Assembly: GCA_965178125.1 (NCBI GenBank) | Contig: OZ237741.1 | Coordinates: 620,001 to 684,000, forward strand | DNA length: 64,000 bases | Direction: 5' to 3' | From: Bilabrum cf. latius | Lineage: Eukaryota | In this document: in pieces, positions 902 to 64,000 of the stretch | How the letters are laid out: each line of letters opens with the position of its first letter | Numbering within the stretch: position 1 is the stretch's first letter | Notes under the pieces: model-generated | Told to the model about the DNA's origin: nothing | What the model saw: the letters and a program-made list of their open reading frames with translations, nothing else | Database searches by the model: none | Translations under genes and position numbers: made by a program

Positions 902-3900
902 TCACGGCATCCCCGTGTCGGCGTACAGCGCCGCGCGCACCGCAGTGGCAAGCGCCTGGTCCTCCGGCCACACACCCGCGGTTGTGCCGTGGTCGTACCC
1001 CTTGGCCTGGAAGTCCTCCAGCGACATGCCGCACTCGGACACCTTCCCGTCCTGCGTGTACACTTTGTTCCCTGACGTCACCACATACGCGTCGTGGGGC
1101 GGGCACGTGCCCTTGCCATAGTCGCCCGAGCTCGTCATAACTAGCGTGTTGTTCTGGTAGTGGTCCTCCTGTCCTGGCAGCTGGGGGCACACGCTGAAGC
1201 CGTGTCCAACGTATGCCGCAACGTTGCTGCGGAGACTCGAAACGGCAAGATGGGACAAGAAATTCACGGATCAAAGTGTGATAGGGCGAATGAGGGTACG
1301 ACGTGGCGAGGAGAGCAGTGGTACTGACTGCCCTGTACCCTACTCTCACTTGACGTGGTGGTTGGAGTGCCCTCCGAAGTCATTCTTCATCTCATTACCA
1401 GAGAGGTACAAGACGTTGTAGGTCGAGTTGAAGTTGTTCGAGCCTGCGAGCGGTGCTTCAGGGATGTCTGGGAAACAAAATGAACTCGATACAGGCCTAC
1501 AAAGGGAGGAAAAAGGCCTTGTGCAGGCTGCTCACCGTCATCGTTGTCGATACCCTCCTGCGAGTCGCAAGAGCAGGTGTAGGACACAAGGAGCAGATGA
1601 GGGCGCACACACGTTACGGGAACACTATACAGAATTAGAGCAAGCAGCAAGCAGCAGGCCAGCACGCTTTCCAATCACCCGACCAGTGCAGTGGCTCACT
1701 TGGACATTGTACTCCCCGAAGATGATGTTCTGGTACAGCTGGTCCCACTTCTTGATGCTGGTGGGTCTGCCGTCCTCTCCGATCCACTCCCAGACCTGGC
1801 GGTCCCAGCTGTTGAACGGGCTGCGAAAAATAGAACAAGGAAATGCACGGACGCACTACGATGCACGGCTGGATTGCGATACGCGGTGGCCATGCACATG
1901 CAATCTAAGCAATTGGCATCGATGGTAGCCGTGGGCGTATCAGTGCGTCGCTCACCCGTGATCACTCGTTTCGCGAACCGAGGCAAACATGATGTTCCTC
2001 GACAGCAGGTGCCCACCGTAGAAGCCGTCGTTTTCATTAATGTGGGCTCTGGGCCCCATGAATGCGATATTTCGATCGATGATGTTCTCGGCAGACTTGG
2101 CAAAGAACAGGAACGAAGACTACTTCTCCCAGATCCCGAAGTGACGTGCGTAATTCGACGCGATCTTGGTACCCTTCGGGTAGTTGCCTGCTGTCGCGTC
2201 GGGACCCATGCCCGGAACACCAGCGCCATCCGAGTCTCCCCACAGCGCCACGCACGTGTCCCCCACCCACTCGAACTCGTTGTTGGTCACCTACGCCCCG
2301 CGAGCATACCCCGCGATCATGACGCCGTTCCCGTCGATCCGCGTGAACCTGCAGCTGTCCACCACAAAGTTCTCGGTGCCTTCCACATGGATGGCGCCCA
2401 GCCGCTCGAGACCCCAGTCTCCTCCTGAAGGCATGCCGTGGGGGTCCATGTACGTGTAGGCAGTGTCGCGGAATTCAATGCCACGGATGGTCACGTCCTT
2501 GAGGGGGTTGCTTTGTGAGGCGTTGGCGACGATGAGCTGCTTCACCAGTGTCGCCACGATAGCGCTGGACGCGCCCGGGCTCACGGGAGAGGACGGTGGG
2601 GGCGTCCCGCTGCTCTCGTTGTACCAGAGGTAGAGCTCCTGCGAGTCCTGGTCAAAGTACCACTCGCCGGGGGCATCGAGCTCCTCAAAGACGTTCTCAA
2701 TGTACATCTCGTCCCCCGAACTAGCTCCCCTGCGAAATGCTAACAAAGACGCAGCTCGTGCTTACGCGCGGGTAAGGAATGGTGATGAGACCCATATAGA
2801 GCTGGGTCAACGGGATCATCTTGAACAGGTTTTCGAAGCGGCCATACAAGCAACAAGGCGTCCTAGCAAGCAACACAAGCTCTGCGCGCACAGTTCGCTC
2901 ACCTGGCGCCCTGGAAGCCCCCCTTGGTAAAGTTGAAGGTGCCCGTGGTGGCATCGTACGATCCCACCTCGAACATCCACGACGCCCAATGGGCTGGGCG
3001 CATCGCCTGCACGACTGCGCCCGCGGCATTCTTGTAAGGCGAGTTGGGCAGCACGCTCTGGTCCGCCACCATGCTTGCCGGGACATGATAGGTGTACGCA
3101 CCGCCACCTGCGCAAAGAGCGAAATTGGACGGTCCTGGTGGGCATGCAGACTGAGCCGTCACCAACTCGAAGAAAACAAGCCGTGTAGCAGCGCAATGGC
3201 AGTAGGTTCAGCGTGTCCTGCAGGCGCCGGTCTCTCTCACCAGACGTGCGATTCCCGCACCAGTATCCAGCTGCGAGATAGCAAGGGAGAGTGAAGGGGT
3301 GTCAGGCCCTCACGGCACGTGCATGCGTCCATATGGTAAGCGGTGCCTATCGTGGCAGTGTGTGAGAATACGCCATGGCTGCAGTTATTGAGGTCGATTC
3401 TACTGCCGTGACTCACCTGGCGGCTGAAAGTGCTCGCAGCATCCGCCGACCCCGAGCTGAAAGGTCTGGAACGAATCGGAAGTGTTGCGGAACGGTGTTG
3501 GGGGATTTATCTCGACGGCTGGCTCCTTGGGGGTGTTCTGAGGTCCCCAGGACTTGGCTTTGAGGCTGGAGCCGAAGCCGTCGATCTCGGGGTTGGCGTT
3601 TGGGTACCTGGCGCGGATGGCACGTCCGCCGTCCACGCGTAGCCCCAAGATACCCTGCTTCTGAAGGGTAGCGGACGATACCTTGGCCTTCCAGATGTTC
3701 GGAGCGTACAAGTGCCGCCCCGACACGTGACCCTCTTGTTCCTGGGTGTCGTAGAGCCCGTCAAACCGGAACACGCAGTCGTAAGCGTACGACCCCTGGT
3801 TCTTGTCGTGCCACGTGAAGACGTTGCAGCCGCCCCCGGCAGTGAAGTTGGCCTTGCACGCGGCCAGGCAGGCCTGCCATGTGGTTTGCGTGCTGTTGAC

Positions 3901-4733
3901 CACCACCTTCCCGGGCGTGGGGCGGAACGAGTAGACTGCGTTGGTGTCCTGCTGTACCGGCCATGAGTCAACCTTGGAGGTGTTGTAGGGCTACCACTGG
4001 AGGCCATCGAGGGGGACGCCCCCGGAAACGATGGCCTTTTCGCCGTTGTAGTTCTGGATGGTAAGCCCAGAGTCCTCCGGGGTGAGCTCGAGGGTCTCCT
4101 GGGGGTAGAAGGTGCCCTCCCTCAGAATCACCGCCGCGGGGTTGGCAGCACCCGGTGCCTTGGACCGAGCGATCGAGACGGCCTTTGAAAGGGTCGCGAC
4201 TGGACTGAAAATCGTACCGGCGTTGGAGTCAGAGCCGTGGGCAGGATCGGCGAATACTTCGACTCTCGCACCCTCGACCGTCGGAAGTACGGCGGGGTGC
4301 CGCCGACCAGCCGGTGCGACTCCCACTGCATCTGCAGACACGTTGCAGCCCGAGGCAATGGCGTCTGGAGTGCCGTTTCTGCGGATATATAGTAGACATA
4401 GTTGGGATTGCGCAGCATGGTTTGGACATCGATCGGTGCGTATGCCGGACGCCAGATGACCATGGACTCATCCTCACAGCACGTCTGCCATATGTTGCAA
4501 CTGCTCTGCATCAATATTTGGCTGGGTGTGTTTTGCGTACTCGAGGACTATCTGCGTGTCAAAGGGATCCTGGACCGGGCTATAGTGTTGCAACTAGATC
4601 TGCCACATTTCGTGCAAATTGACACATCAAGTAGCGTACTTACGCCTCTCATAATACAATCGAATGACTTCTAGTCAGCATATGCTACGTTTACTGCTGC
4701 AGCTGCACAGGCAGCTACAAAAACGGTACGCAT
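902..4733 (-). CDS. Secreted right-handed parallel beta-helix (pectin-lyase-fold) protein with a PAN/apple-like Cys module, about 898 aa, 10 exons
   Basis: Exons 4733-4644, 4551-4478, 4378-3417, 3270-3241, 3107-2903, 2729-1956, 1820-1700, 1557-1536, 1443-1350, 1226-902; all introns GT-AG and phase-consistent. Signal peptide MRTVFVAACAAAAVNVAYA. Motifs VILREGTFY, RARYPN, YIENVFEELDAPGEWY, GIWEKQSS, GPFNSWDR, IDNDDGS. In-frame TAG at 4671, 3991, 2291, 2120. Ends TGA. Confidence 0.85.
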
Positions 4734-5580: not shown

Positions 5581-6805
5581 TCATGTCCCAGTGGTACCCC
5601 CTTCTAGAGCACTTCTGGTGTCACCAGGAGCAGCGCCTGGCCCATCATCACCACTCGCTGCAGCACCACCCGCCGGCGGCCCAGTGGCAGCAGCCTCCTC
5701 CAGGCCCCCCTTGCTCCGTGCAAGGGGCACGGTCGGCGCCTTGACCTCCTCCAGGCTTCGCTCTAGCCTCGCCCTCATGGCCCGCATGCGCTCTTCGTGC
5801 CCCAGCCGAATCTCATCTATGCGGGCCTTGCTGCGGTCCACGGCGGTCGCCGCAATGCCGTGCACCCTTCGAGCCACATCGCCCGCCAGATCGCTCGCCG
5901 TCCGCTCGTGCTGCTCTGCGAGCGCTCGCATCCTCCTGGAGTAGGCCTTGTCGGCATCGCGGCGGGTGTCCCGGGCTTGGGCGGCAGCCCCTGCTGCCAT
6001 GGGGATATCACCAGCTTCGAAGGCTGCGCTGGTATCACCGGGCGATTCTCCGCTTCCCGCACCGCTGGATGGCCCAGCGGCCCTTGCCCGAGGGCTTGCC
6101 TCGTCCTCATCGTGCTTGCTCTCACCTGCGCCTTGTGCTTGCGTGGTTTCGTCTGGGGCATCATCATTCAGTCCTCGGCCTTCAAAAGACACCAGCTCTG
6201 GCAACGCACCCGCGATCTCTGGTGGGCAAGCCGGGTATTTCGCCCCTCCGAGATCACCGACGCACGGGTTGTCCCGCAACCAGAGGTGCCGAAGGTGATC
6301 TTTGGGCAGAAACTATAACATGCCCTCAGTTGAATCGATCTTGTTGCTCTAGAGATCCAGTGCTTCCAGTGGAAGTGTCTCCAAACCTTTCAAATCTGGC
6401 ACTTGCAGCCGATTGTGAGACAGCATGAGCAGCCTTAGGCCTCGGATTGGTGCTAGTCTGGCCCCTATTGGCTCGCTGATAGAATTATGCTACAAATACA
6501 ACTCCTACACTGCGGTGAATTGTGCCAGATTTTGTCCAGCAGAACGGAAGCCTCAGTTTTCTAGACATGAATCGAGTGCTTTACAGTAGGGTCGGCACAA
6601 GGACTGACTCACGCCTATCAAACGGCTCCAAAGTGTCGGATACGCATGTGATTCCCAACCAACTCAGATTGAGCTCCTTAGCCTGCACCAATGCATCGGC
6701 CTGCTCTTCCAATGGGATGCTGCCAGCCCCACCATCCAGATTCTGCAACCACGCCTCGCGCACCATTCCGAACGTTAGGCGCTTGTCGTGCTCAGTACCT
6801 GCCAT
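5581..6805 (-). CDS. Leucine-rich repeat protein (SDS22/LRRC46-like) with C-terminal coiled coil, about 373 aa, exons 6805-6613 and 6509-5581
   Basis: LRR units ELNLSWLGI, LQELYLQHNSI, LRLLMLSHNRL, LEALDLQSNKI and cap LRHLWLRDNPC. Four in-frame TAG (6505, 6490, 6349, 6313). Intron GTGAGT...CCGCAG. Ends TGA. Confidence 0.8.
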
Positions 6806-10000: not shown

Positions 10001-11554
10001 GTCCCTGTAGTGCCCCTCAGCGCCCTCCACGTACTCGAGAAGCTTCCGCACGATGTCGGGGAGGTTGCGCTTGGTGACCATGCCGCTGATCAGCTCCAGG
10101 GCCCGCAGGCGGATCGTCACGTCCTCATCGTCCAGGCACTCCAGCACCAGATCCCTGTGCTCTGCCACCACGCGTGCGTTGGAGACCATTAGGTTGCTGA
10201 GGCCCACCAGGCCAAGGTACTTGAGGTTCTGGTCGGGGTCGCGGATGAACTCGCGGAGCTTGTCGGTGCACAGGCGGATCACGGCGGGCGCGTTCTTGGC
10301 GTCGCTTCCGTCCGACCTCCTGGTGAACTGCAGGCAGACCGTGATGGCGTAGATGCACTCGTACATGAGGCTCTTGGCGGCAGTAGTCGCGACCTTGTTG
10401 GCCAGTGGCTCGAGGAGCTTGCGGGCCAGCCGGGGCTCCTCCCTGACCAGTGCGCTCATCAGCTTGGTGACCTTGATGAGCATCCAGTTGTTGTGGGAGG
10501 TGGTCAGGATCTTGAACAGGTCGGGGGCCAGGGGGAGGTAGTTCTTGGGACGCTTCCGCGCGAGCTCGCAGATCACGTTGACGGCGCATGAGACCACCGC
10601 CGGGTCCTCGTCCCCAAGCCTGCGCTTGAGGCTGTCAAAGGTCAGGCGCAGGCCCTGGGGGTACTGCGTGTACAGCTTGTACAGGACCAGGGTTGACTTC
10701 TTCCTGATGTATGGCCTGGAGGAGGTGAGCATCTTCTCGATGGTGGGGAGCAGGTCCCTTGCCAGGTCTGGCGTGGCGATGTTGGCGAGCGTGTTGACGG
10801 CTTGCCCGATCACGAACTGGTTCGGGTGCCCGAAATCGCGAGCGAGCAGCGCAGTACACAAGATGTTCACCTCGGTCTTCGGCGTGAACGTTTGGGAAGC
10901 CATCAGCGCCGCAGCTCGCTTCAGGGCAAACCGTTCCTGCGACGCACAAGATCATTGGTTCAGAGAGATCATCCGACAGTATTGCATTTGCACGCAGCAA
11001 TTGGGACTCTCGAACAGGAACAAATCACAGTGATTATGGACACCCCTTCAATACGAATCTGTAAGCACCAACATGATCAAGCTGGCAGCTTGAGCAAACG
11101 TACGATCGAAGCTGACGCGCGCGATTTGCATCCCCACGAATATGCGGCGACACCCTTGCAGCATGGAGCCCAATTAAACATATTTCAAAGACGACGCATA
11201 ACCGGTCATGCACTTAACCATCGGTACTCCGTGGTGCCGGTGGATCTGACGACTTGCACATGCACACGTCGTTGCGGCAACAAAGATCTCTGCCGTGCTG
11301 GCACTCACCTGGGGCATCACTTCGGTAACGTGAAAAGCAGCCCAAGATACATCTTCTCCAAGCATGTGCAGGTACGTCAACTTCTAGAGTGCGACACCTT
11401 TGGTGTGGATGTCTCGACCTCGCAGCTCGTCCTTGATCTCGGCCATGCACTTCTGGATGAATTCTTGCTCATTTCCACCGGCACTTCGGATTCCGCGAAC
11501 CATGTCTTTAAGTGAGCGCTTGAACAGCCCCAATGCCGCCATTGGGCTTGCCAT
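7043..11554 (-). CDS. AP3D1: AP-3 complex subunit delta, about 1379 aa, exons 11554-11309 and 10936-7043
   Basis: Adaptin-N motifs LFKRSLKDMVRGIR, KLTYLHMLG, WAAFHVTEVM, NNWMLIKVTKL, DPDQNLKYLGL, VEVQERA, LKPVAAKAQRKVPVPEGLDLDAWIN. One in-frame TAG at 11384. Ends TGA. Confidence 0.95.
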
Positions 11555-11703
11555 AGCTTCACAAAGCTAGCTTGATTTTGGCAAGAAGCCAGGAAACTGA
11601 GTATTTTGTTCTGTAGCGTGTGGATTGGAAGCGCTCGTCACACCAACATTCGAGAGTAGATTTTAATGAGCGCACAGAGACAACTCCCATTGCCACGCCA
11701 GTG

Positions 11704-14700
11704 ATGTGTATTGTCAGAGCAGTTGTATTTGTATTCTTACTTGTGGATACCGCCGTAGCTACGGAGATTGAAGCTGAGAATGTGTCAAAGTCTCCCGCAG
11801 CGCTTGCAGAGCAGTTTCGGCACAGCCTCAGGAGCGTTCTGTCTCGCGTCAGCACAATCCGTTTTGAAATTGAAGAATTTTAGAGGAAATCTAATTGGAC
11901 TGCTTCACTAGTGCGATAGTTTGCTTCTGTAGATGCGATATCTGCTGGCTCAAGCTTTCACCACGAGGTTGAATCTCCAGAATAGATTCGCCCTGTGCAG
12001 TCATCAGGGCCTCCATTGTTTATGGTGGCAGGGCGGGCTGGAGAGTCATGCCACCAAGTGTGCCACTCTATTGGGCGGACCTGCAGAAGGCATTTTATGC
12101 CCGTTGCAAACACGTGCGAAGCAATGCGAGGTGGTTTCGGATGCAAAGGACCGTGCTTGTTCGGATATGGTGAAGGCCATCCAGCAGCCATATTTCGTCG
12201 AAAAGCTCCAAGCAGGGAAGCGCGTCCACCACCAAGCTCTAGACCACTGCTGGGCTCGCTGGGGCACGAGAGCCGCGATCGCAAGGCTGTGGGGGATAGT
12301 GCAGCCAGGGCGCTGAGCGGGGATGTAGAACCGGAACTTGGGGCGGCTCAAGTAGCAGAGCAACGCTCGAAGGATGAGGAAGCAGGCCACTCACCGCCAG
12401 CAAGGGATGCACCGGGATATGACGACGATGTGCTCGCAGACGATGGTAATGCCATTGAGGGTGAGGGCAGCAGCAAGTCAAGCACGCCATTGGGAGAGAC
12501 TGAGAGAGAATCAATTGCGCAGAGCACAACCGAGGCGGAATTTTCGTAGGATATCAAAGCCAAAGCTGTCAAAAGCACGCCAGCACCAGCGACTCATGCG
12601 ATAGGCAGCACATCTGAAAATACGGCAACGACAAGACCGCAGGATGAAAGATCTACCATTCACTCCAAGAGTATTGAAGGCAGCACCGAGCCAATAGACC
12701 GCGGCACAGATTCACGCATGTCTCACAATGCTACGTCTAGAGCAGGCGGCCACGCGCCTCACGATACGCAAGAGGAGACCGGCCTGAGCACAGGCTAGGG
12801 AGCAGCACCGGTCGGCATGCAGGACAGAGATGCGCAAGCCAGGCGGGCAGAGGCTACCTGTTTCGTGCACGCGGATCTGCCAGCGGTGCCTCACGGCCTG
12901 TACCTGGACCTGCTGCGTGCCTATGGAGTATCCATGGCTTGGCGAGGGGACGGCGCGCTGGAAGCGAGGGGCATTTCACGAGGGTATAGACGACGGTTGT
13001 TCAGTGAGCACCGGGAGAGCGCGGCTGCAGCTGCCTTGAACGATACGTCTAAGTCTTTGCAATGGAACGGAAGACAGGGTGAGGTGCCGCCTGTCCAGCC
13101 ACAAGGCCCATCAACAAGGGGCGTGAGCCCCCCGTCGTCCTCGGGGATACACCCCGTCGAGGCCAAGGGTCTGGTGCTTCCTAGTCCACCTACAGCAGTT
13201 CAATCCACTCAAGACAGCACCACCAGCATAAAGGCCACTTCAACTGGAAGCACCAGTGGCAGCAGCATCAATAAGAAGAGTGAAGCAGGAGTCCCTGATT
13301 CACCACAGGATTCGCAGCCCGCACTTGGGCCAAGGGAGGCCGCGTGGGAGGCCCTTCAGGCAGCCGTTCCAGTCGGACCTGCAGGCGAGGCCCAGGCAGT
13401 GGTGTGGTGCGATGGTTCTCATCCAAGCGAGGCCAGGCTGTGTCCGTGTGGAGAGCATTCTCTGCTGGTGGAAGCTGCGGATGCTCTTCGGCGCATCTTG
13501 CGCGAGGACGAGAGCGAGCGAGGGCTGGAACTAGAGGGCGTGGGGGAGCTGGAGGATGCCATGGGCCGGCTATCAACTGACTGCAAGGCCGGGTTCGTGG
13601 AACTGGAGCAATCGTAGCAGCAGCTGACAGAGCTGCGCGCCCGTTAGATGGATGCAGACATGACCGACGCGCTGCTGCAGAGTCTCAATAAAGTAGACTA
13701 CGAGTCGGGGACAGTGCAACTGCCTGATGGGACCAGGCTTCCATTCCAGGCTGCAATGGACCAGCTCGCTAGCTTACTAGCGAAGCGTGGCAAGAACGCA
13801 GCTGCGCCGCCGCGAGCCTCCACCAGTCCTGGTCAGGCCGCCGGGGACGCGAGCGCACCACGTGCTGGCCCAGCCGAAGATAGTAAGCGCAGATCCCACA
13901 CTCATGGACCCTTGCCGCATACCACCCTGGCCAAAGACCTCGAGTCGGAAGTTGACGTTGGCAGCGGTGAGGATTCGCAGGAGAGCGTCCTGGATACTCT
14001 GCTGGGCCTCATGACTGGATCCACGCGGCGGCGGCACGCGGTGGAGGACGCGAAGGAGCAGGTCACGGGGCACGGACCAGGGAATCAGCCATCACTGTCC
14101 GCGTGGGAGCAAGCCGCCCTGCGCACCGGAAATGCGGAGACCAGAGCTGACAGGGAAGCAGACGACGATTTCGAGGCGGCTGGGGCTGGCCATGGGACGC
14201 AGCAGGGGCAGCGCAGCTCAGCCGACCCTCACGATCCAGCAGTCACGGGAGGTGGCACGCGGCAAGGATCGGGCTCGTCCGCCGCAGTGGGGCTTGGGAA
14301 TCTCCTCGACCTGCCCGTGCAAGATCCTGCCATGCTCAGCTACAACGAGCACCTGCTGCAGGACATCGCGTGCCTCCTGGCCGCTGCCGCTGTGGGGGGC
14401 GTGCTGGCGTCCTTCATTGGCGCGCCTCCCTCTTTCGGATACCTGATTGGAGGGGCAGCCATCGGGCCCTCTGGACTCGGCATTGTCACGCAGCTGGCCC
14501 ATGTCGGCACAGTGGCGCAATTTGGAGTCGTGTTTCCCCTCTTTGCAAACGGACTGCATTTCAGCACGTTCTAGTCTGGTAGCTAGCAAGCGCCACGGTA
14601 GCCAGCTGCTGGCAGCGCAGGAAGTCAAAGCCGAGAGCTGCTACCCACTGATAGCAGCACGCTAGGCTGGGCCCCGTCACTGACGCAAGGCATCGACGAG

Positions 14701-14715
14701 GCCGGCTCGATCCCA

Positions 14716-14749
<34 letters not shown>

Positions 14750-16161: not shown

Positions 16162-16235
16162 GGTTGAACGCGCTCTGCTGTGCTGGCATACACCATCAGA
16201 CAATCATGGAAGGTCGTACATAATCGATTCATTTG

Positions 16236-27200: not shown

Positions 27201-27218
27201 TCCAACCGCACCCTCCAT
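21294..27218 (-). CDS. VPS9-domain protein (Rab5-family GEF) with very long low-complexity N-terminus, about 1974 aa
   Basis: One frame with nine TAGs (27006, 26856, 26013, 25311, 23745, 23247, 23121, 21549, 21528). VPS9 motifs AAGELRGV...SKIARAESACMAI, GADADAFLPCLIYLV, QGYALGQLANALHFV. Ends TGA. Confidence 0.75.
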
Positions 27219-38788: not shown

Positions 38789-39000
38789 CTCTCCTGAACT
38801 AAAGATGAGCGTATGCGAGGAGCGGTTGCCCGTTGGTGAATTGTGTGGTATTTTCTTTTTGTTGCGAATGGATTCGCCCCGAACCCCGGCACAGCGGCAG
38901 ATCTGAACCCCGGTCCCGCTCGAGTTTGCCTCACTCCACTGCATGAACGGGTGCAGCAAAGCCAAGTTGCGTGTTAAACGCCTTATTCGCTCATCAAAAT

Positions 39001-50200: not shown

Positions 50201-51405
50201 GTAGCGGTTGCAACCTCGCCCCCAGGGGCAGGCAGTCGCACGGAGCACAATCCAATCCCGCGGGTGTCCACTGCGGGCGAGCAGTTAAACGCTATCATTA
50301 GAGGGGCCTGCGGCTCCCAGTCGTGCCCATCGTAGGATCGTCCAGCGGGCACAGGGGCACTCTCCTCAGTGCCCCCTGCGGAGTTGGGGTCATACCCCTC
50401 AGGGGTCCGGAACAGCCGGAGCAGCTGCCCAGGCTGCGACCTGGCAAGAAGCACGGTATTGCCAGGGAGCATTCCTGGGAGTGGCAGTCGCACGGCTTTT
50501 CCTCCCGGTACCGGCATCACGAAGGGCGCAGGTGACGGAGACACGCTCGGTGTGGGGGATGCGGTGGGCATCGTGGACGGTGAGGATGAAGGTGATGGTA
50601 GACCCGGCAATGCGTCGGCACTAACGCCTCCCACGCCTGTGAGAGAGTCAGCCAAAGGACCGCCTTGTTCCCCGGCATCTATCAGAGCCTGCAGCAGCCC
50701 TCCTGATTCGGCCGCTTCCTGTAGAGCACCTTCCACCGCTGCGGCCACGTCCTCCTCGGGCTGGTCCGGCATGTACGCCGGGCCCAGCCGCAGGGAGAAG
50801 GTTACCTCGACAGATGACCCAGATGATCCAGATGCACCCGATGGGCCGGAATCTCCGCCTTCGGCATTGCTGCCGCCCCCGATGAGGGAGGCAGGCGCCA
50901 CGCCGGTGACCGAGCACGAGCCCTGGGGAAGTCCAGCCGCTGCTTCGATTCCTTCGCAGAAATCGCGCGCGGCACGCGAATCAGGTTGGATGTCGTTCTC
51001 ACTGATACCTTGGAGTACTATGGATGCATCCACTAGAACCGAGTCGTTTGCAGCGCGCTACGGCGCGGAGAGGTCGCCATCGCCGCCTCCTGGCTCGTCG
51101 CCTGCCGAAAGCTGCCATCCGACGATGCCTGCAATTGCGGCCACTACCAGGATCACAGCGCCAATGAATATGTACTTCATCATGCCACAGTCAGAAGAAG
51201 TCGGGGCAGCAGACGCATGGGCTTTCTTGGCTGCTGGGAGGCTCCCGTTGGAAGCACAGCTTGCACTGCCAACAAACTGAGGGCCTCCAGTCCTTGCTGG
51301 GCCCCGATTTACTTGGTAGGGGTTCATAACCATTGCAAGAACGTTGTCTTGGATGACGCTTCCATCCTGGGCCTGGCGTGTCTGCCCCAGCTTGGATACT
51401 TGCAT
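44290..51405 (-). CDS. Membrane-anchored DUF1800 + DUF1501 fusion protein, about 2371 aa
   Basis: N-terminal TM YIFIGAVILVVAAIAGIVGW. DUF1800 motifs APDQLRQRVAWALSQIFV, PDENFAREIMQLFTIGL, TSNPSPGYVERVA, GRMREPLIK, SPSVFNFY. DUF1501 motifs LFLSGGVDSFNMLVP, GFDSHS, ASEFGRT, GTDHAWGG. Seven TAG (51058, 48445, 48436, 46111, 45889, 45223, 44350). Ends TGA. Confidence 0.85.
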
Positions 51406-52097: not shown

Positions 52098-55000
52098 TCA
52101 CACTTGGTTCCTTCCCGAGCCCTTGAGCTGTAGATCCTTAGACTCCGCCCCCCGACGAGCACCCACGCCTTGGGCATCCGTGGAATGGCCAGCCTCGCCT
52201 TCGCCCAGGTCCGAGCCACCTCCGGCCCTCATCGTTCCAGCCATAGGATTGGCCATGCACATCACCTGCTGCGGCCCACCGGTCCCTAGGTCCAAAACAC
52301 GCTTCACGGTAGAGCTGCTCCCTCCGCCACTTCCCCCATTGACTGGCTTGGAGGCCTTCTGCGATGCCTTGGGCAGTATCGAGGCGCGGCGCCGGTCCCG
52401 CTCCCGTTCTTTCTGATTCCGAATGGCATCAGGGCTCTCCGGGTCCTCTTGCAGCAGGGTCCACCAGAATAGGCCGAACAGGATCAGGAGGCACCCTATG
52501 CTCCCGATGCCCACGACGTACGTGAGGCCCAGCGCGGCAGAGTGCAACGCACTCTCTCTGTCCCGCATGGATGGGTGCTGCTGCAGGGCCGCTACGGTGT
52601 TGAGTCCCACCGCCAGTGCGGATAGCAGCAGCGTGCCCACTTTGCCCACCCTCTTCCACTCATACTCCTCGAGGAAGGGCGAGGCCGACTCGATCACCGC
52701 CAGTGCAACCAGCAGCACGAGCACCTGCGTGATCCCGGCCGCCAGCGCCCTCCCTGGGGCATTGGGCACCCACAGCCGCTCCAGCCCAGCGAGCATCAGC
52801 AGGACGGCCCAGTCGACGCACCGGACCCACGCCCTAGAGGCGCGGTAGTCCCCGTCCACGAAGTAGGCCAGCCGGTGCGTCTGCCGCAGGATCAGCGACC
52901 GATCACGCACCGTCTCCAGGATGCTGCGAGCTAGGGCAGGGGAAACAGAAACGCCGAAGGCCCCCATCATGCCACTGCGAGTTACAGTTGGGACAGATTC
53001 CGATTCGGAGGCTGTGCTGGTGCTGGGACCAGGACCCAGCAGGTCCGCCGCCGACGCTGTGGGCTGCAGCAGCACCGGGGCAGATGTGTACCGCATCGCA
53101 CCGTCGGCATCGCCATTGGCGGAAATGCCACCACTGGCACTGTCCCCGGCTCCCTTGCTCGCACACATGGGGGCGCTGAACTGCACTCCCGAGGTGGAAC
53201 CTCTCCGTGACAATCGGCCACCCCCGCCGCCTCCCGCCATCTTGTTGATGGAAGGTCCGCTCGTGGGGGCGGCCAGCTGCTGGGCGGAGGACTGGTCCGC
53301 TGCGTATGCCTGCCTCATCTGCCTGATAGTGCCCCTGGCCGCATCGTGCGAGAAGGGACCCGATGTATTCTGGGAGTCGACCGCCTTGGGACTGGCCGAT
53401 CCATCGGTCTTGCTTCCACTGGCTGGAAGGCCCCGGCCACTGCCTGTACATGACCACGCTCCGCAGCCGAAAGCATGCCCAAACTGCTCCCACCATGGCA
53501 GCTGCTTCGTCGTGCGACCATCGGCTGCCAGTGCGATCCTCAGCTGCAGCTCTGCAGCATCAAGCCGGGTGGCTGAGGGAGACACTCGGACGGTGCGATC
53601 AATCTCTGGCAGGATCCACAGCAGCAGCACGGCGGGATATCCTGCGACCACAATCAGGATGGCCATGATCGCCATGAAGACAGCAGCCCTGTGCGGCCCA
53701 TCCCGGAAGCACACTACGGTTGGATCACTCAGCAGCAGACTCACGTCCAGGTCCTCCGGGTCATGTCCGTAGCTAGCGAGGACCTGACTGGCGAGCGCCC
53801 GCTGCTCCGAGCCATCAGTGAGCACAGCGTCTCCGCTCCCAGTGTCACCAGCAAGCGTTGTCCCGTTGAGCCCAGCCCCCATCTAAGGCTGCTCCCCGCT
53901 AATCCCATCCGTGCCATTGCGCGATGCACTTCCGCTAAAAATACCGGCCTCTTCCGCTCCGGCGAGCGCCTCTGCAGGCAGCTACACCGACGCGATTCCT
54001 TCGTTCTCCGCTAGCCTCCCGAGAGCATACGGAGCCCTGCAGTCCAGCACCTGCACCACCGTGGTGCATGCAATGGCATATACGAGCGAAAGCGCGGTCA
54101 GGAACCCTCTGGCGCCCAGCCCGCAATGTCGCACCCCATCTCCTCTGGTCAGCCGCCTGCTTGCCTGCTGCGACAATCGCACGGCACCAAAGGTCTCTTC
54201 CACGGAAGTGCTTGGTGCAGGCCTCTTTCGGTTCCTATTGGCATGCCGTGCTTCTTCATGCGTTCCGCTGGCTACGTTCGCACTAGATGACCCTGCACCT
54301 GTACCTGCAACCAAACCCTTACCCTCGCCGAAGCCCTCACCCTCGTCGCTTATCTAACTGAGGCTATGTCCAGCCATCATGCGGCGAAGGGCCCGGCTGC
54401 GGGCCGCCTGGCCTGCTGCTCCACGGGACCGACGCGAAAAGGCATCTTTGCCACCGAAGAGCGGGGCGCCGGACTCGTGCCGGCCCACACGTCTTGTCAA
54501 CCGAAGGGTGTTGCTGCCACTGTCAGAGGGCAGCTGAGACCCCCACAGGAGGCCGTACGCGATTAGCGCCATCCCGATGGCAATCCCTAGCACCAGCATC
54601 TCCTGTGCCAGCTTCACCGCACCGATGCAGTCGGGGTGCACCAGGGCGGCACTCTCAAACCGGAACACGTCGAGCATCCGCACCACCGTGTAGTACCACT
54701 GGGGCAGGCCCGGCTGCACGGCCCGCCCTGCCTGCGCCACAGTCTGCAGCAGGGCTCCTGCGTACAGAGAGAACTATGCGGTGCGCTTGGCTGCAAGTCC
54801 AAGGGGAATGCCCCGAGAGTGTGCTACGATTCCAACCCCCACCATAAGCACGAAACAGGCTCCCGCCACGCCGCCTCCGTACACTAGGATCGGCTGCAGC
54901 AGCAGCCAGGCCGACGGCGAATCGGGGCACAACTGGCAGGAGCCATCCGATTCCGGATATCGCCGGTCCTCGCACCTGGAGCAGCCCGTGGACCCCTGCC

Positions 55001-58000
55001 TGAATCCTTCCCCGCACACCGCAACATCCTCCTGCTCGTCCCAGCCCAGGCACCTCTCCTCCGCTGGCGGTTCGCACCGCAGCACCAGCCCAGAGTCTTC
55101 GGACTCGGTCCAGAAACCGGGGAGCGGGTGGGCCTTGAATCCACCGGGGCACACCGCGCCGGCGGGGCATGACCTGCACGCGTCACCCGCGCCGAAGGCG
55201 CACACCAGCCCCGCCTCCACGGCCTCGCGGTCGGCGCAAAGCGCTCCCGGCTGCGGGAATCCCACGCACTGCTCCACGTACTCGATTCCCCCTCGCAGCA
55301 CAATTGCAGCGAAATCGGAGTCACCCGCGGCGATCGAGGACCCGTATGGCATCACCGGCAGCAGCACGTTATCGGTGCCGGACGAAATCGGCTGACCGTC
55401 TCCTGCTGAGACTGTGGCATCAGACGGGGCTGGCCCCATCACAACGCACCCGTTCAGCTCGCTTGAGGCATCGCTGCCAGAATCCGATGCTTCGCCCTTC
55501 CACTAAGCCTCACGCACTTCCAACGAACACAATGCAGTCAAAAGGGCCACTGTGCGAGCATCAGCCAAAATCACACCATTTGCAGCAGCTCCATCGGTGG
55601 ACTGGGTCACACTGCCGCTGATGGATTGGCTGACTCCGCGTGGGATACCAGCCACGATGGAGGACACATCAGGCGGCCAACCCGAAGTCGCAGGCTCGCC
55701 ACTTCCGCTCCGCACTGGAGGCCCAACAATCAGGACGGCACGCTGACTGCAGCTCTGGGACGGACCTATGGAGCTGCCGCCGGGAGCCTCAGCTGCAGCC
55801 CCCTCAGCGGTAGGGCATGCCTCGCTGGCTGGTGGCAGCTGCACGACGGCGGCAGTCGCGTCAGAAGTCGTCCACAGCACCTGTGCAGGCACACCTCCCA
55901 CGAAGACAAGCGACTAGGCCGCCAGGCACGGCACCCTTGCACCAGTTTGCGCATTCCTAGTCGCTACTTCTGCCAGCGGGCAGGTCAGCGTGACCTGCTG
56001 CGACCCGCTCACGACGATCTGAGGCGCCTGCCAGGGTTGCGATTGCGATTCCGAGTAGGTCTGCGCTGCGTCCAAGGCCTGTCGCAGCTGCGTGTCAAGT
56101 GCCACGGTGCTGGTATTGTCTACAATCGTGGTGGTTAAGATCCTCAGAGCTGCAGGCGGTGCAGACTTGACCCGGCGCAATCTTCTAGCGTCACTGTCAG
56201 ACCCGACCAAGGAGTTGCCTGCAGATGACACCCCGCTTGGCACGGACGTTGGCTGGTCGGCCGAACCCGACCCCCTCACCCCGCCCCACGACGACAGATA
56301 CCTGCTGTTGCGACCGAGCAGTTCTGCGGCCGATCCCGGTGCCGGTGCCTCATCCGTCGCGCCTGCTTCCGGCGTGCCCCACACTGCATCGGGCAGTCTG
56401 GTCAACATGTCCGCGGTCGCAGGCCACCGAATCGCCCGCCCAAGTACGGGGAAGGCCACGCCGAGAGGTCTCTGGTACCGTGCCCCGAACACTGGGCCCG
56501 GTAGTCCGGCCACGTCATCCGGAAGGACAGCTGGCCTGGCCATTCCAGTGACCCGCTGCACGAGAGCCTCAGCAGCGGCCCTCTCTGTGCTCTGAATGAC
56601 GCAGACCACCCACGAGCGGTATGCGCCTCCTCCTTCCGTTGCCTGGTCAATGTCCGACTCTGGACTGAGACTCACCTTAAGCTCCGCCAGCACCGCACCG
56701 CCTGCCTCCCACAGCAAGATCTCGTCGTCTCCCAGCAGCCTGACCGGCGGATCTACGAGGAAGGCACTCTCTGGCGTGGCTTCGAAAGCATCCAGCGAGG
56801 GTGTGCCGAAAGCGTCCGTCTGCAGCGAGTGCGCGAGGCAGGAGACGAGCAGTGCCTCGTCCACCGCGGGCTGCGCGGGGACATTGACGCTCACAGTGGG
56901 CGGTTCGAGGGCCTGCAGCGCCAGGGAACTCGCCCCGTCGGGAAACGGGCTGGTTCGAGTCACCTGCGGTGGGGTTCCCAGCATGCGGGCGGCTAGGAGG
57001 GACATGGGGTCTCGGCTCGATTCCGCTGCCGCCACCTCGAGATCGGTTTCATCCACGAGTACACCCACGCCGAAGCTGCCGCCGCCCGTGCCGCCCGGCA
57101 CAGCGGCTGCAGATACGTCACACTACCCCAAGGATAGATCAGCAGGCCGTCCTAGCGGCGTTGCAGCATTTGAATTCGCTTTCAGGTTGCGGCTCGATCC
57201 TGCCACGGCGGAAAAAGAGGCCAGCCGCATGCCCCCTTCGCCTGCTATCTGACCGGGCGGCACCCGAAGCACCGCCCCCACCTGCACCTCAACGCACACA
57301 CCCCCTGCTCCATTGGCTGCCATTGCATCAATCGCCTCCATCGCGGGCAGCCCGGCAAGGGGCCGGCCTGCGCCTGTCACAGTGTCCAAATTCAGGACAC
57401 TGCGGGCGTCTTCAAGAGCCGTCCAATTGGATGGGGTACTTGCTGGTACAAAGTGATCCAGCTCAAGTCCCTGCACAGACTCAGCTGCTGCCCTGGCCAC
57501 GTCAACTGCGGAGACATGCACTACCTGAGCTGCAGCAGTGATATCTGCCAGGATTGATCCTGCGGGTTCCTTGACTCCCACCCCGACTCTGGCGCCAGCT
57601 GCTAGCATTGAATCCTCGTTGCCTGCGACCCAATCCGCCACCCCACTCCCATAGGCCGCAGGAGCCTCTAGATCCAGCGCCACTTGATCTGTCAGTCCAA
57701 GCTCGTCTTGGCCGTTGACAGTCATGAAGCGGACCGAAACGTTGAGCCGATCCGGCAACCAGCCAAAGGCAATGAGCCCCTTGGAGGCCTGTCCCCCAAC
57801 CGGCCCCGCGATGGCCGCGGTAGCCTGAATGCCGCCAGACACGCCCGCCATCGAACCGTAGGCATCCAGGACGGCCCCGGAGCACACCCTCGCCGTCAGC
57901 AGCACCTTGGTTCCGCATGCCGCGGCAGTACCCGAATCCACGGGCAGCGGTCTGATGCCGGGGCACGAGAAAGAAGCGCCAGGTAGAGGTGTATCAGTGC

Positions 58001-61000
58001 TGCTGGAAGCAGACCTGACCAGCGGGCTGCCTGCAGGCCAAGGGCACCTCTCCTCCTGGCCGACCAGCATGGACACGTTCAGAGGCCGTCCGCGCAGCAC
58101 GATGGAACGATCCGGGCCTGCGACTGGCACTGCGCTCTCCAGGTTTGTGACGATGCTAGCGAGCGAGTACAGCCCCATTGTGATTCTGGGACTCACATGG
58201 ACCTGAACGCCTCTCCCGCCCCAGGTCTTTACCGCGTATGCATGTGTCCGACCGGGATATCCCACGTCTACGAGGATGTTGGCCTGCTCGAGCACAGCTT
58301 CGTCCGCGGACAACCATGAAGACGGCAAAATCGACAGATCGAGTGAAAAGACTCCATCGGATATCGTCGCAAGCGACGCGTTGAAAGCAGCCTCAATGCG
58401 CATGAAAGATGCGTATGAAAGGTGCAGAGGAGCCGCTGGAATCGTGCCCCGCAACTGTAGCGGAAGCGTGATGGTACCTGCAGCCTTGTCAGCACTGGCT
58501 GCACCGGCCTCTAATACCCGAAGCGCTGCGTCCAGCATCCGATCGGACCGTAGGGGCTGCAGCCGGCCCATGCTGGTGGGGCTCGGAATCACCTTGAGCA
58601 CTGGCAAGTCCACTCCGTCCAGCAGGTGCACCAGCTGGTCGTCATCCAGATCAGCAGTCGGCACAGGAACCCACACTTTTAGCTGCCCGCCGGCATCGGG
58701 CTGTCCCAGGCCAGCCGGTCCCGATCCCCCGGCATCTTCCGATGAGCTATGATCTGCCACTAAAGATATGGCCCGCCCATCCACAGTAATATCTACACTC
58801 ACGGGAACGATGACCTACAGCCTCAGGTCCTCTGCTGCCAACGAGGAGAACTCCAGGGTCTGTCGAACCAGGTCCCACGTCTAAACCGATGAATCGCCTG
58901 GAGGCGCGTATCTTCGAATAACCCAAAGATCGCGATCCCCACTCTCCACCATTCGCATTGCAAGAAGCTGCAAATGCTCCACGAGGAATCGGACGACTAT
59001 CCAAACCCCTCCAGAGTCAGCAAATAAGGCCCCAGCCCTACTTAGCACAGAGTCGGGACCCACAAAAACGACCGCAGTCGCGCCCTCCGACTCAGGCACC
59101 AGTCCGTTCGCATCCGCTCGCTGGGCGAGCCAATCGGCATCAGCCGGTGCCATGTTCACATCAATCCGCAGCTCGGCCAAAATTCCGTTTTGCAGGCGTT
59201 TGCCCCCGCCAAACCAGCTGCTGTGGCTCGGATTCTCAAGACGCACCGCCCGCCTATTGTGACTGCTGTGAAGCAGCAGTGCAGCGACAGTCGTGCTGTT
59301 GATCGAAGAAAGCGACTCTTGCCTGCGCGGCGAACCCGTCGAGTTGTCGCTGGTGGCGAGCAACAGGGGCAAGCCGTTGCCGTAAAAGTTCCTGACGACA
59401 GAGCAAGCGATGCCGTCCTTGTCGTTAGCCCACGCTTCCAGGTCTTCCAGCGAACTGGGACTTCTCCCGAGCAGCGAGTCGGGGGGATACTCTCCCACAT
59501 ACGCCGGGTCCATGTCGCCACCGGGATGAGAGGGCAGGTTGCGCGGCGGGGACCTCGGGGGGTGCATGGACGGCCAAAAGACACACACAGCCACTCGCAG
59601 GTTTGTCACGTTGCGGATCGGAAGCCATGGCATTTCGGCCTGCAGCTGGTACCTCAGCGCAGGGTGCACGGGAGTGCCGTTTGTGCTGTTCCCATCTGTG
59701 AGCACCCGATGGCTCGCAAGCTGCATGCCGCTATCCGTTGTCTCCGCCTACCGTACCGCATTTATCACGCTATTGTACTCTGCATCGCCTAGAAGAGTCC
59801 CGTTGATGCTCGCCAGCCGCGCCCAAGCCCTCCCCTCAAAGCTGTCACCCACCTGAAGGAACGCCAGGGCGCCGCCTCTGTAGATGGAAGCAATCGGAAG
59901 CTCTCCTCGAACAACCACCATCACCCCTGCCGCCTTGGCTTCGTGGACGTTCAGTGCATCTAGGCGCAACTGACCCGGAAGCGGGCCTCCTTCCGCGTCC
60001 AGGAGTGTCAGCGCCCTTGGAAGCAGCAGCTCTCCTCTGCCCAGGCACGCATCGCAGGCGGCTCGCACCTCCTTCTGTCCCGCACCCGTATTCCTCTGTG
60101 TCAGGAACCGGACAGATACGGGCGGCGTGCCGACGGAGAGGAAGGGGTGGTGCATGCCAGCGACTGTTGTCGGAATATCGATGGCAAGCCGGACGGGCAC
60201 TGCAGCGGGTGGCCCAAACACCTTCCCATCGGCTAAAGGGGAGCCTAAACGACCCATGTCCTCATGCAGCCGTTCCACAGCGGGACTCTCAGGCAGGTCC
60301 TTGAATAGGTGCAGGGGGTGCGCGCCACTCACCAATCGCATGCCAGTGAGTCCTCCGTCGTTCGGCACGGAGGCCGACACGTTCAAGAACAGACGAGTGG
60401 CACCCGCCCCGAGTCTATCGCTGTGTGAGAGCTCAAACTGCACCAGGCCGCCCCTGTTCAAGGACCAGTGCGACATGAAAAGAGTGCCCACGGAGGCAAT
60501 CTCCACCACCACTTTCTGGACCTATCCATCCCGCAGTCGCACCGGCAGCATGCATCCTGCGGTGCCCCGAAGAGCGTCCCGAGGGCACAGCATGGGCCAC
60601 ATGTGCGTGCCAGCTGGCCGACGGTGCGGCGGGTGTTCTGGGAGGGCGTGTCCCTACGGGCTGCGCTGCAGACAGAATGTGGCTCCGTACACGCCCTTGT
60701 AGTCCCCGTTATCATTCTTGCCCCCAATCACCACTACGTAACCTCCACCCAAGTGTGCCATCACGTGTCGGGAAATGCCTCCCGTGCCAGGAAGAACGGC
60801 GATGTCGCCCGTGGGGCTGAGCTGCCGCTCCCAGTGGCTGCCGTAGTCCCACGACCTCCAGCAATCAGCATACCGAGCTTTCTAGTTCATTCCATTGCCA
60901 GAGGCTATTCCGGGATCGGAAAAGTCATCCTCGCCCCCGCACAGCAGCACGCTATCATCCGGCAGACTAACTAGCTCTGTTCTCTGCCTGGGAGGCCAGT

Positions 61001-64000
61001 AGCTCCTGTGGTGTGCTCCAGCAGTCACAGTCGCGGTCGTCCAACTGAGGCCACCGTCGAACGAGGCTATCGCGGCGCTGGAAGCAGCTCGTCCGTTCTT
61101 TGCAACAGCTTCGTCGGCGCACCCAGCTGTCACAAACACGCCGCTTGGTGTGCCCGTGGCCGCATTCTTCTCGCATCTACCTGGCATCGCACCAACAAGC
61201 GTGTCCCAGCTCTACCCTCCATCTATGGATCTATACGCATCCTTCATTCTGGCGATTTCATACTTTCCACCCACCATGACTACGGTTGGATGACTGCTGC
61301 CTTTGGGAAAGACCGCCGCAGCAGCAAACTCGTCCAACTTTGGCAACTCCTACCTGTGAAGCTGCTCAAAACCACAGCATAAATTTCCGCGAAATGTGTG
61401 ATACTCCCTGCCGCTGCCTCCAGTCTCCGGATCGGCCTCTCCAACCACAAGCACAGTCTAGTTCCAGGCTATGTCGGGGGTAGGAAAATCTAAAGGGTTC
61501 TCCTGCACGTATGATTGAGCTGTCGGCACGGCAACTATTTCCCTGTGATGATCACCCCCAATGTCATCACCATCAAATACATAGAAGGACCACCCGAAGT
61601 CATCACTTCGCAACAATCTGTCTTCGTACCTGATTGCACCCGACTCATGCTTGTCACCATCATTGATAAGAATCGTTCCATTGGAAAGTACAGTCGCAGA
61701 CCCTCCCTCAATACTGAATGGGAATGTTGTCGATGTGCTCTGGTAGTTTTCCGACACTGTTTCCCAGGCACCGCCATCGCACGTACCTGGGCTCGACTTC
61801 CTCTGCGTGATGCTCTCCGCAAGTCGGGAGGCTTTGCCCCTGCCACGAGGACGGGCAAATACGGTCTATGCCTCCCTCAAAGACAGCTACGGCCCATTTG
61901 GCGTGCTAACCAATGATCCATCCAGGTCGCCACGAAACCTGGTGCCGTGGACTGCCACTGGCTGCATGGCAACGAGCCGCACAGCAGGTCCGTGCAGGTT
62001 GGTCAGCTGCGACAGTTCCCGCGTTGTGCGACGATATTGGCCTTTTCCGAGTTGCCTGGATGCTACCATGGGGTGGCTCCGGTTGTACTCTCCGGTGATC
62101 GGATCGAGTACGGCATGATCCGATCCGTGGTCGCACCATCTCGCGACCGTCGGCAGCTCCATGAGATAAACCGCCCCAAAGGGCGCGCCGGCTTCCTCCT
62201 GTTTGTACATTGGATTATCGTTGATGAACGCGGGGGCACCGGCGAGCAGCAGCGGGGTGGGCGACAGGGTTGCGTTCGTGAAGGGTGAGGCAGCCAGCGC
62301 AACGCCCTATCCAAATCGACCGGGTTCCCGCAGGTGCTCCGGAGCCGATATGAACCTCACACTACCGGGCACCACCAGCGGATGGTCAGCAGCATCCTGC
62401 GAGCTGGCATCGAGCCGATCCAGCACGGAGTCAGGCAGTTTCCCAGTCCCGGCATTGCCTGACATCCCCAGCGTGAAGAGAAGAATACCGCCTCGATCCT
62501 GTCTGTCGGGCGCAGTGCCTACATGCCTGTCAGAAGACATGCCATCGTCGAACGGGACTTCATAAGCACCCACTCCAAGCGCCACCTCTAGGAGTCCGTC
62601 GCCGTCCAGGTCCGCCGCAGAGACAGATGTGAACTCACCACCTCTCTGGTAGGGCAGGATCGAGTTGGGCCACATGCCACTGGCACGGCTCATTTGCTGG
62701 CCCAGCAGTACAACCCTATCGATAAACTAGGTAGCGGTGAAGGACAGGATAGCGAGCATGCGTGATGATGTCACATCGCCTGACGCCACCCATGGTACTG
62801 TTTGACCCCCAAAATTGGTGGAAGCAACCAACACGTCTGCCATCCCATCGCGATCGACGTCGCCAAGTGTTGCCAACGTGCTACCCAGCCCACTAAAACT
62901 GGCTAGCTTCTAGCCTTCACTGCTTCGGCTAAATCCAGTCACTAATGAAGAAGAGCTGTGGTATCCTAACCTTGTTGTGATGGGCTGGCGGCTAGCAGAA
63001 ATCGTGAGCGAGAAGATGCCACCCTTTGACTTGTAGTCAGCTGCACCGGCCAAGAATCCCTCAGCGCAGCCATCCCCATCAAAGTCCACGTTGGCCACGG
63101 ATACTCCAAATCTTCCGCCATTCCAGACACCCTAATTCAGCTTCACTTCATTCGCTAAAGGAACACCTTGGTTAATGGAGTTTGACATCGTGAACAGTGC
63201 AAACGTGCTAAAGTCCGGGGTCCCTGCGATAGGGTATGTTGCACGGCCGTCGGCATGCTGCTAAATCGCACCTCGGGCCACAGCAAACCGGTAAAACCCG
63301 CCCCTCCTACCGTACTAGTCTGGCTGTCCGATCGTGAAGATCACCTTGTCTGCTGGCAGATTTGCAGCGCCACGTGCATTCGTAGAGCACCCCATTGTCA
63401 CCGAAACCGAAGACCCCCATGCTGCGCCGATGTCATCAGCGACACCGTAGCCATCATCTCCAGCTTCCGCTGGTAACCCTGCTGCTAGCATCCTCCTGGG
63501 CCTGTAGGCCGCGTATCCAAGCCCGCCCCCGTACCCGTAAACATCTTGCCTTAGACGCACGCCGGAATCTCTCTGCTCAAACCCTGCCGTGCCCTCCATG
63601 CGATTCCTCCAATCGAGGAAAAAGACATACACAACCCCGTCTTGCTCCTTAAACGTGCTTTGTACGTACCTTTTTTCCCTGGGTTGACCTACAATTGCAT
63701 CCATCTGCCCATCTCCGTCTACATCGAACCAGAAAGCTGATGAACCCAGCCCAAAGCCATCTGGGTCACTGGAGCTCGGCACGTCTTTAGCCTGCCCAAA
63801 CTCACCTGTGGATAGCCAGGCGTTGTCCTTCTCCCGTGGATCACCCGCCTGTCCAGCCCCTCTCCCAAAGGCTCCCAGCAGCCGCGCAGGGAACGCCTAC
63901 GACGGACCGACCCACGCGCAGCCCCTGCACTCGACTGACACCCAGTCGCCGCCGTCCCCGGGAGACGCGCTGCCGCTCGTCGTGGGATACGAGACGCGGG
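52098..64000 (-). CDS. Giant cell-surface protein, 5-prime partial, more than 3960 aa: FG-GAP repeats, Asp-box repeats, IPT/TIG-like segment, Cys-rich region and C-terminal multi-TM domain
   Basis: Fifteen listed ORFs share one frame and are separated only by TAG (about 25). FG-GAP motifs DVDGDGQMDAIVGQP, NVDFDGDG...LAGA, GDVDRDGMADVLV, ADLDGDGLLEVALG. Asp-boxes RSDDFGWSF, RSIDGG[TAG]SW, SFDGGLSW, RSWDYGSHW. Cys-rich CPAGAVCPGG...PGFW. About 7 TM segments. Ends TGA. Confidence 0.85.

Follow-up and report, generated by a model that had tools for sequence, protein, structure and literature searches.

Evidence that UAG is read as glutamine, with UGA as the usual terminator, in a GC-rich eukaryotic nuclear locus

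What does UAG specify in a gene that continues past it? We addressed this question in a 64,000-nucleotide (nt) stretch of contig OZ237741.1 (assembly GCA_965178125.1, Bilabrum cf. latius, positions 620,001 to 684,000). We call this whole stretch the window, and all coordinates below are counted within it. Its G+C content is ~61% (58-69% per 4-kb bin), and it carries a eukaryotic nuclear gene set that includes AP-3 delta, eIF5B, RagA, centrin, histone H2A, and a YEATS-domain protein, among others. Most of its genes contain TAG codons in frame. We estimate, at a probability of roughly 0.9, that the window is nuclear DNA of a GC-rich (~61%) eukaryote that decodes UAG as glutamine and ends its genes usually with UGA and rarely with UAA. 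An earlier note, made from the sequence alone, had proposed that UAG means Gln and that UAA and UGA stop translation. This proposal was supported here by homologue columns, by a metagenomic relative, by the absence of in-frame TAA and TGA, and by the terminators themselves.

With the three standard stops in force, the longest stop-to-stop frames in the window were 1303, 871, and 775 codons. When TAG was read as sense, the longest frames became 3967, 2387, 1976, 1546, and 1303 codons; the same treatment of TAA left the 13 longest frames all unchanged, and with TGA as sense no frame exceeded 1447 codons. Nine long coding frames, together 14,203 codons, contained 65 TAG, no TAA, and no internal TGA, as had been claimed for the latter two, and the two off-frames of the same stretches held 102 and 89 TAG, 23 and 39 TAA, and 240 and 265 TGA. 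Across the window we counted 85 in-frame TAGs spread over 15 of 17 gene models, close to the earlier figure of ~84 in 15 of about 19 genes; the histone H2A and centrin models had none. In the nine long genes, TAG made up ~12% of Gln codons (65/562). The number of in-frame TAGs is far above chance. The genes on which the argument draws most are as follows.

902..4467, minus strand: right-handed beta-helix gene, multi-exon (frames 3388-4467, 2902-3207, 1955-2761, and 905-1270), TGA end; three in-frame TAGs (3991-3993, 2291-2293, 2120-2122); 120 homologues at 45-56% identity
7043..11554, minus strand: AP-3 delta adaptin, exon 1 at 11315-11554 and main exon at 7043-10951, TGA end
27499..28418, minus strand: histone H2A (Pfam Histone), no TAG, TAA terminator at 27744-27746
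29055..30056, plus strand: YEATS-domain protein, GAS41/Yaf9-like (PDB YEATS4/Yaf9, E = 1e-27), TAGs at 29187-29189 and 29625-29627
30623..32716, plus strand: MFS transporter of the organophosphate:phosphate antiporter type, TAGs at 30779, 30965, 31205, and 32456, TGA end
32881..35835, minus strand: eIF5B, 984 residues starting with the ATG at 35835, three TAGs (35029-35031, 34423-34425, and 34168-34170), TGA end
36216..37807, plus strand: RagA/Gtr1 GTPase (Gtr1_RagA, E = 4.7e-32), introns 36392-36479, 36674-36771, and 37279-37415, TGA end
38018..38790, minus strand: centrin, intron 38246-38338, no TAG, TGA end
44290..51405, minus strand: DUF1800-DUF1501 fusion protein (Pfam), 2371 residues, seven TAGs including 45223-45225, TGA end

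Pfam or PDB matches agreed with the families named previously for eIF5B, AP-3 delta, RagA, YEATS, MFS, DUF1800/DUF1501, and LRR. The eIF5B frame aligned without gaps to solved eIF5B chains straight through the TAGs at 34423-34425 and 34168-34170 (PDB, E = 1.4e-176), and AP-3 delta exon 1 likewise aligned gap-free through its TAG, so the claim that conserved sequence crosses these codons held in both alignments. AP-3 delta (Adaptin_N match, E = 2.9e-93) has a single TAG, at 11384-11386 in exon 1 (...GVAL[q]KLTYLHMLG...). This exon aligned to AP3D1 residues 13-83, placing the TAG opposite a Cys in the solved mammalian chains, in a column with too few sequences for scoring. The earlier listing of AP-3 delta among the TAG-containing genes is therefore correct for exon 1 and not for the main exon, whose 1302 codons include 25 CAG or CAA and no TAG. 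If TAG had its average share for the window, that main exon would contain ~3, and it has none; some genes may avoid TAG.

To identify the amino acid, we aligned homologues of eIF5B (120), the MFS transporter (7), the beta-helix protein (120), and the DUF1800/DUF1501 protein (the best 150 of 9716), and computed residue likelihoods over the 12 TAG sites at which four or more homologues contributed a residue. Glutamine ranked first, followed by Ser (-4.5 ln units), Ala (-5.2), and Glu (-9.8), with a posterior for Gln of 0.98; Leu was not among the eight best-ranked residues in this 12-site likelihood. As a control, the same scoring decoded 60 of 61 sense codons correctly when all sites were used, the exception being ATG, which was called Leu. 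When each codon was represented by 12 randomly drawn sites, mean accuracy was 0.97 (CAG 97.5%, CAA 85%, ATG 19%). Three sites that the earlier note had read as glutamine by family pattern bore this out to differing degrees: the beta-helix TAG at 2120-2122 (GIWEK[TAG]SS) lay in a column that was Q in 120 of 120 homologues, the MFS TAG at 31205-31207 (NGGL[TAG]ALGWP) in one with Q in 6 of 7 and H in 1, and the DUF1501 TAG at 45223-45225 ([TAG]TVHAQ) in one where Q held a plurality (Q 56, K 15, H 9, M 8, A 7, E 6, R 5, and N 3, with 119 aligned). The LRR and YEATS sites put forward in the same way were uninformative, being confined to repeats or poorly aligned. The column at the beta-helix TAG 3991-3993 was mixed (K 32, E 29, and Q 9, with 101 aligned). 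Overall, Q was the plurality residue at 3 of the 12 TAG sites vs. 35 of 98 CAG sites.

Not every column favored glutamine, and several of these results weigh against it. The eIF5B TAG at 34423-34425 fell in a column that was Ser in 119 of 120 homologues, and the beta-helix TAG at 2291-2293 in one dominated by Thr (T 88, S 14, V 4, R 4, N 2, and A 2, of 120). Columns dominated by another residue were among the findings that the earlier note had named as refuting its proposal, and these two are such columns, although the 12-site likelihood as a whole still points to Gln. Columns at least 70% non-Q accounted for 2 of the 12 TAG sites vs. 4 of 98 CAG sites, and the remaining seven scored TAG sites were variable, mostly polar, and barely discriminating. 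Nor were TAGs enriched beside Gln codons (5 of 152 neighbors, 3.3% vs. a 3.5% background, p = 0.62); the occurrence of TAG inside CAG runs, cited previously as a sign of glutamine, is thus anecdotal. The same two dissenting columns are what would favor reading UAG as another amino acid, most plausibly Ser, as in the green alga Scotinosphaera, or Ala. These residues also stood second and third in the TAG likelihood, and UAG = Ser is known in nature (PMC11687900).

Further evidence on this point came from a 2516-nt metagenome contig (L001) encoding an eIF5B 86% identical to that of the window over 619 residues, with 573 of 674 aligned codons identical. At both window TAGs that could be aligned, including the one under the conserved Ser column, L001 has CAG. 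Conversely, L001 has six in-frame TAGs of its own, at five of which the window has CAG and at one CGC, so that TAG and CAG corresponded in 7 of 8 aligned cases. Four of the L001 TAGs that are CAG in the window lay in columns that were Q in 120, 120, 120, and 119 of 120 homologues; two of them are the two Gln residues of a single ten-residue motif, and another is the Gln of the GLExQT motif. The CAG of this 86%-identical relative accounts for the conflict at the Ser column, since the Gln there would be common to the two organisms. Moreover, the window eIF5B deviates at 29 of the 225 positions conserved at 95% or more, so a lineage-specific change at this column would be unexceptional. Were TAG a Ser codon, two CAGs at these positions in a relative at this distance would be very unlikely, and we take the assignment of TAG to Gln as settled, with a high probability for Gln. 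Ser or Ala becomes a very improbable choice: Q leads S by 4.5 ln units over the 12 sites, the column at 2120-2122 is invariant for Q, and the TAGs of L001 sit in invariant Gln columns that the window fills with CAG. By the same codon comparison, the UAG-as-Gln code is shared by the related environmental organism, and the change is thus older than an eIF5B divergence of ~14%.

Lineage-specific changes are common to the two eIF5B sequences. In the G domain (34380-34425 in the window), a near-universal RGSS is changed to RGQN in both, and both carry a three-residue insertion (KKE) after VDIM, where the next residue is His in 118 of 120 eIF5B homologues and Lys in the window organism and L001.

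Are the TAGs retained in the messages that are translated? We compared the region 21001-41000 with contigs from public sequencing runs, namely X1, which is of DNA type, and X5, X6, and X7, whose contigs proved to include spliced ones. The latter three come from two or three studies and are labelled as organisms other than that of X1; their RNA status is deduced from splicing, X5 being labelled "probably DNA" and X6 and X7 guessed to be RNA, and none of the matching runs is recorded as RNA. Contigs from all four runs matched the window with no differing letters, insertions, or deletions. Contigs for H2A, RagA, centrin, and one more gene lacked introns that are bounded in the window by the canonical GT..AG (CT..AC for minus-strand genes), and the locus is therefore nuclear and expressed. 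For H2A, a model incomplete at its 5' end, the introns are 27818-27960, 28073-28209, and another beginning at 28419, seen in spliced contigs of X5, X6, and X7. A second centrin intron (38620-38784) appeared in one run only.

Contigs of X5-X7 spanned all 20 TAGs of five genes in this region. Each of the three eIF5B TAGs was covered by X5, X6, and X7; all nine TAGs of a 1974-residue low-complexity protein were present in X5 contigs, two of them also in X7; and both YEATS TAGs lay within X6 and X7 contigs. RagA has TAGs at 36514-36516 (GGQD[q]LYD) and 37667-37669, and its exon 2 (36480-36673), which holds the first of these, was intact between two spliced junctions in X5, X6, and X7. The eIF5B contigs covered 32827-35872 (X7), 32832-34894 and 34931-35868 (X6), and 30165-35872 (X5). 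In X6 and X7 their ends resemble those of an mRNA, extending from 50 nt beyond the TGA to 37 nt ahead of the ATG. Because the contigs end at ~35870, a fourth TAG in the long eIF5B open reading frame lies upstream of the transcript. The earlier note had asked whether transcripts would carry CAG at these sites or lose the TAGs by splicing; the contigs show TAG, and splicing leaves the TAGs in place.

This retention argues against editing, splicing, and assembly error, and bears on the broader possibility that the TAGs are artefactual or untranslated, whether through misassembly, UAG-to-CAG editing of RNA, location in introns, or decay of pseudogenes. Such an explanation has its prior plausibility, together with the fact that the runs were available as contigs rather than raw reads. 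It would have to accommodate one DNA-type and three transcript-type runs without a differing letter, TAGs kept in spliced contigs, frames as long as 3966 codons in which neither TGA nor TAA occurs, and a separate metagenome contig with the same TAG usage, and we find it hardly credible.

Some contigs joined distant GC-rich low-complexity stretches (for example, 25938 to 35283), and we set these joints aside as chimeric. Such long-range joints and the stretches that contigs skipped are due to GC-rich repeats in the gene for a 551-residue protein (repeats at 39109-39227, 39507-39564, and 40145-40196). Runs that bear the labels of two other organisms contained spliced transcripts of the window organism in appreciable amounts, and it was therefore a co-cultured, associated, or contaminating partner there.

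If UAG is sense, which codons end translation? TGA terminates 16 of the 17 gene models and TAA one, H2A (27744-27746). The eIF5B protein extends to the end of its alignment with the solved chains and then meets TGA. At the 3' ends, eIF5B was compared with homologues to its end, and H2A and centrin were judged by their translated ends. Up to its TAA, H2A has what we take to be a normal length. It could be argued that UAA and UAG both encode Gln, as in translation table 6, and that UAA is merely rare in a GC-rich genome. TAA is indeed scarce in all frames (192 in 64 kb vs. 401 TAG and 709 TGA), and it terminates only one gene. If TAA were read as Gln, ~14 would be expected in frame (89 CAA multiplied by the TAG/CAG ratio of 65/408). 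None was observed among the 14,203 codons, despite those 89 CAA and the 23 and 39 TAA of the two off-frames. This deficit leads us to reject a table 6 code, which, with H2A also ending at TAA, is extremely unlikely.

Further points count against our interpretation. The case for UAA as a stop is thin, consisting of one terminator and the absence of in-frame TAA. All run data are assembled contigs, from which rare variants are dropped, and the RNA labels of X5-X7 are deduced. No tRNA gene was found in the 64-kb window with ARAGORN, and no Rfam match there; among the window's gene models there was no eRF1 gene. Finally, TAG was read through in all models, so a terminator TAG near a 3' end would escape notice. 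This last point leaves room for a dual code in which UAG is Gln inside genes and a terminator at some 3' ends, comparable to what Condylostoma and Blastocrithidia do with other codons. Only 17 genes were available, every TAG in them was read through by construction, and some TAGs stand close to the TGA end (20 codons before it in DUF1800/DUF1501 and 13 in DUF2064). Yet eIF5B continues to the end of its alignment and closes with TGA, H2A and centrin end at TAA and TGA without any TAG, no gene requires a TAG terminator, and the L001 eIF5B ends in TGA TGA. In the Iotanema study, moreover, each of 81 UAGs that might have been terminal was assigned to sense (PMC5304391). A dual role is unlikely.

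The remaining gene models are listed below.

5581..6552, minus strand: LRR protein (Pfam LRR_4/LRR_8), four TAGs, TGA end
11533..16161, plus strand: Na+/H+ exchanger family protein, 1542 residues, 12 TAGs, TGA end
16887..18101, plus strand: open reading frame without family match (putative gene model), 404 residues, six TAGs
18239..21004, minus strand: DUF2064-containing protein, 921 residues, four TAGs, TGA end
21294..27218, minus strand: low-complexity protein, 1974 residues, nine TAGs, TGA end
39001..40656, minus strand: charged low-complexity protein, 551 residues, TAGs at 40324 and 39616, TGA end
42429..43985, plus strand: open reading frame without family match (putative gene model), 518 residues, one TAG
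52098..63998, minus strand: giant FG-GAP-repeat membrane protein, more than 3966 residues and open at the window end, 25 TAGs, TGA end

Four models had no family match (16887-18101, 42429-43985, and the 1974- and 551-residue proteins). All 12 TAGs of the Na+/H+ exchanger lie outside the best-matched stretch of its transporter domain. The giant FG-GAP gene is a single intron-free frame with N-terminal FG-GAP repeats and, judged by eye, C-terminal hydrophobic stretches that may span a membrane. Proteins of ~2000 residues related to the DUF1800-DUF1501 fusion form a large family (9716 matches at E <= 0.001), in which its best relatives share 35-49% identity across most of 1200 residues; recorded sources of its relatives are few and comprise marine transcriptomes and metagenomes. 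In the beta-helix gene, one extra TAG (3400-3402) lies in an unaligned, probably intronic tail and was left uncounted.

Two tandem repeats adjoin genes. The first, at 29996-30194, has a 64-nt unit in 3.1 copies (99% matches) and extends over the end of the YEATS coding sequence, so that its unit includes the terminal ...GSV TGA TGA; at this repeat (30025 to 30165) the contigs of X1, the DNA-type run, were broken. The second, at 5230-5407, lies just 3' of the LRR gene and has a 42-nt unit in 4.2 copies with 97% matches, one frame of which reads as repeated HRSTVAQHGDSLEH.

How might UAG have been captured without UAA? According to PMC5304391 and PMC11687900, a tRNA with anticodon CUA reads UAG and not UAA and is one change away from tRNA-Gln(CUG), and eRF1 is usually altered so that a reassigned codon is less well recognized; for Iotanema, a T32G change in eRF1 is reported. 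By the same route, a tRNA-Gln(CUA) derived from tRNA-Gln(CUG) through one anticodon change would decode UAG but not UAA in the window organism, and its eRF1 would no longer recognize UAG efficiently. New TAG codons could then arise from CAG by synonymous C-to-T change.

Apart from L001, eIF5B relatives among the 120 best matches were at most 56% identical, with oomycetes, plants, red algae, and fungi all at ~50%. The metagenome scan with eIF5B returned one locus only, L001, and no further relatives were found in viral contigs with an AP-3 delta query or in genome contigs with an eIF5B query. None of the proteins encoded in the window was among the matches listed in the searches with eIF5B, the MFS transporter, or the beta-helix protein. 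An eIF5B tree grouped the window with L001, the stem leading to the pair measuring 1.09 changes per column, beside environmental sequences only and outside plants, red algae, fungi, and oomycetes, but this was a quick search with 31 rows that omitted 104 of the 120 matches, and a single gene cannot place the lineage. We considered Amoebophrya ex Karlodinium and set it aside because of its AT bias and its reading of all three stop codons.

Tentatively, and at somewhat less than even odds, these data could mean that the UAG-to-Gln code arose independently in a eukaryotic lineage where it is not yet described. If so, this would be the first case of UAG = Gln in a GC-rich genome with UGA, not UAA, as its near-sole terminator, and the loss of UAG as a stop would need neither AT bias nor UAA-dominated termination. 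The code would also be common to at least two diverged members of a clade, the window organism and that of L001. Few splits between UAG and UAA are known, and they serve to ask why both codons usually change together. A genome with 61% GC and UGA-ended genes would widen the conditions under which UAG can be captured, in line with the view that UAG can be released on its own by a tRNA(CUA). In practice, if this organism and its relatives are annotated with the standard code, most genes will be truncated or split.

Nuclear codes in which UAG and UAA have parted ways are described in the 2024 paper PMC11687900 for the rhizarian exLh (Leu), Iotanema spirale (Gln), Scotinosphaera (Ser), and Protocruzia tuzeti (Gln). 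Further splits reported there are an oligohymenophorean ciliate (UAA Lys, UAG Glu) and the phyllopharyngeans (Leu once, Gln twice), and UAG is reported as Leu in phyllopharyngean metagenome-assembled genomes from TARA. Because UAG alone already means Gln in several eukaryotes, the code proposed here is of a known kind (the table 15 type). In our literature search, from which subscription journals and supplements were out of reach, no GC-rich non-ciliate eukaryote with UAG = Gln was found besides Iotanema. The window shares with exLh and Scotinosphaera the uncoupling of UAG from UAA and differs from them in that UAG is Gln.

Among the closest parallels is the fornicate Iotanema spirale, in which, as PMC5304391 describes it, only UAG is reassigned, to Gln, UAA remains a stop, nuclear genes hold many UAGs, and a tRNA-Gln(CUA) is predicted. 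Iotanema, like exLh and the phyllopharyngean ciliates, uses UAA as its main stop (PMC5304391 and PMC11687900). By contrast, the window, at 61% GC, ends 16 of 17 genes with TGA and one with TAA. The ciliates Protocruzia tuzeti, Hartmannula sinica, and Trochilia petrani likewise read UAG as Gln and leave UAA unreassigned, according to PMC11687900. With 27.4-53.6% GC, and with UAA the most and UGA the least used stop, they differ from the window, where GC is 61% and UGA the near-sole stop. The window is also unlike them in being a 64-kb stretch with frames of up to ~12 kb and introns of 87-165 nt. No metamonad or ciliate name occurred among the 120 best eIF5B matches.

Codes that reassign both UAA and UAG to Gln (table 6) are reported in the same source for many ciliates, Ulvophyceae, hexamitin diplomonads, Streblomastix, and Amoeboaphelidium (PMC11687900). 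The window resembles them in giving a stop codon to Gln and terminating with UGA, and departs from them in that UAA is absent in frame and ends one gene. Outside eukaryotes, TAG is likewise Gln in crAss-like and other gut phages with code 15, which use suppressor tRNAs in bacterial hosts (PMC9523058). Our locus, in contrast, is eukaryotic and nuclear, with spliceosomal introns and histone genes.

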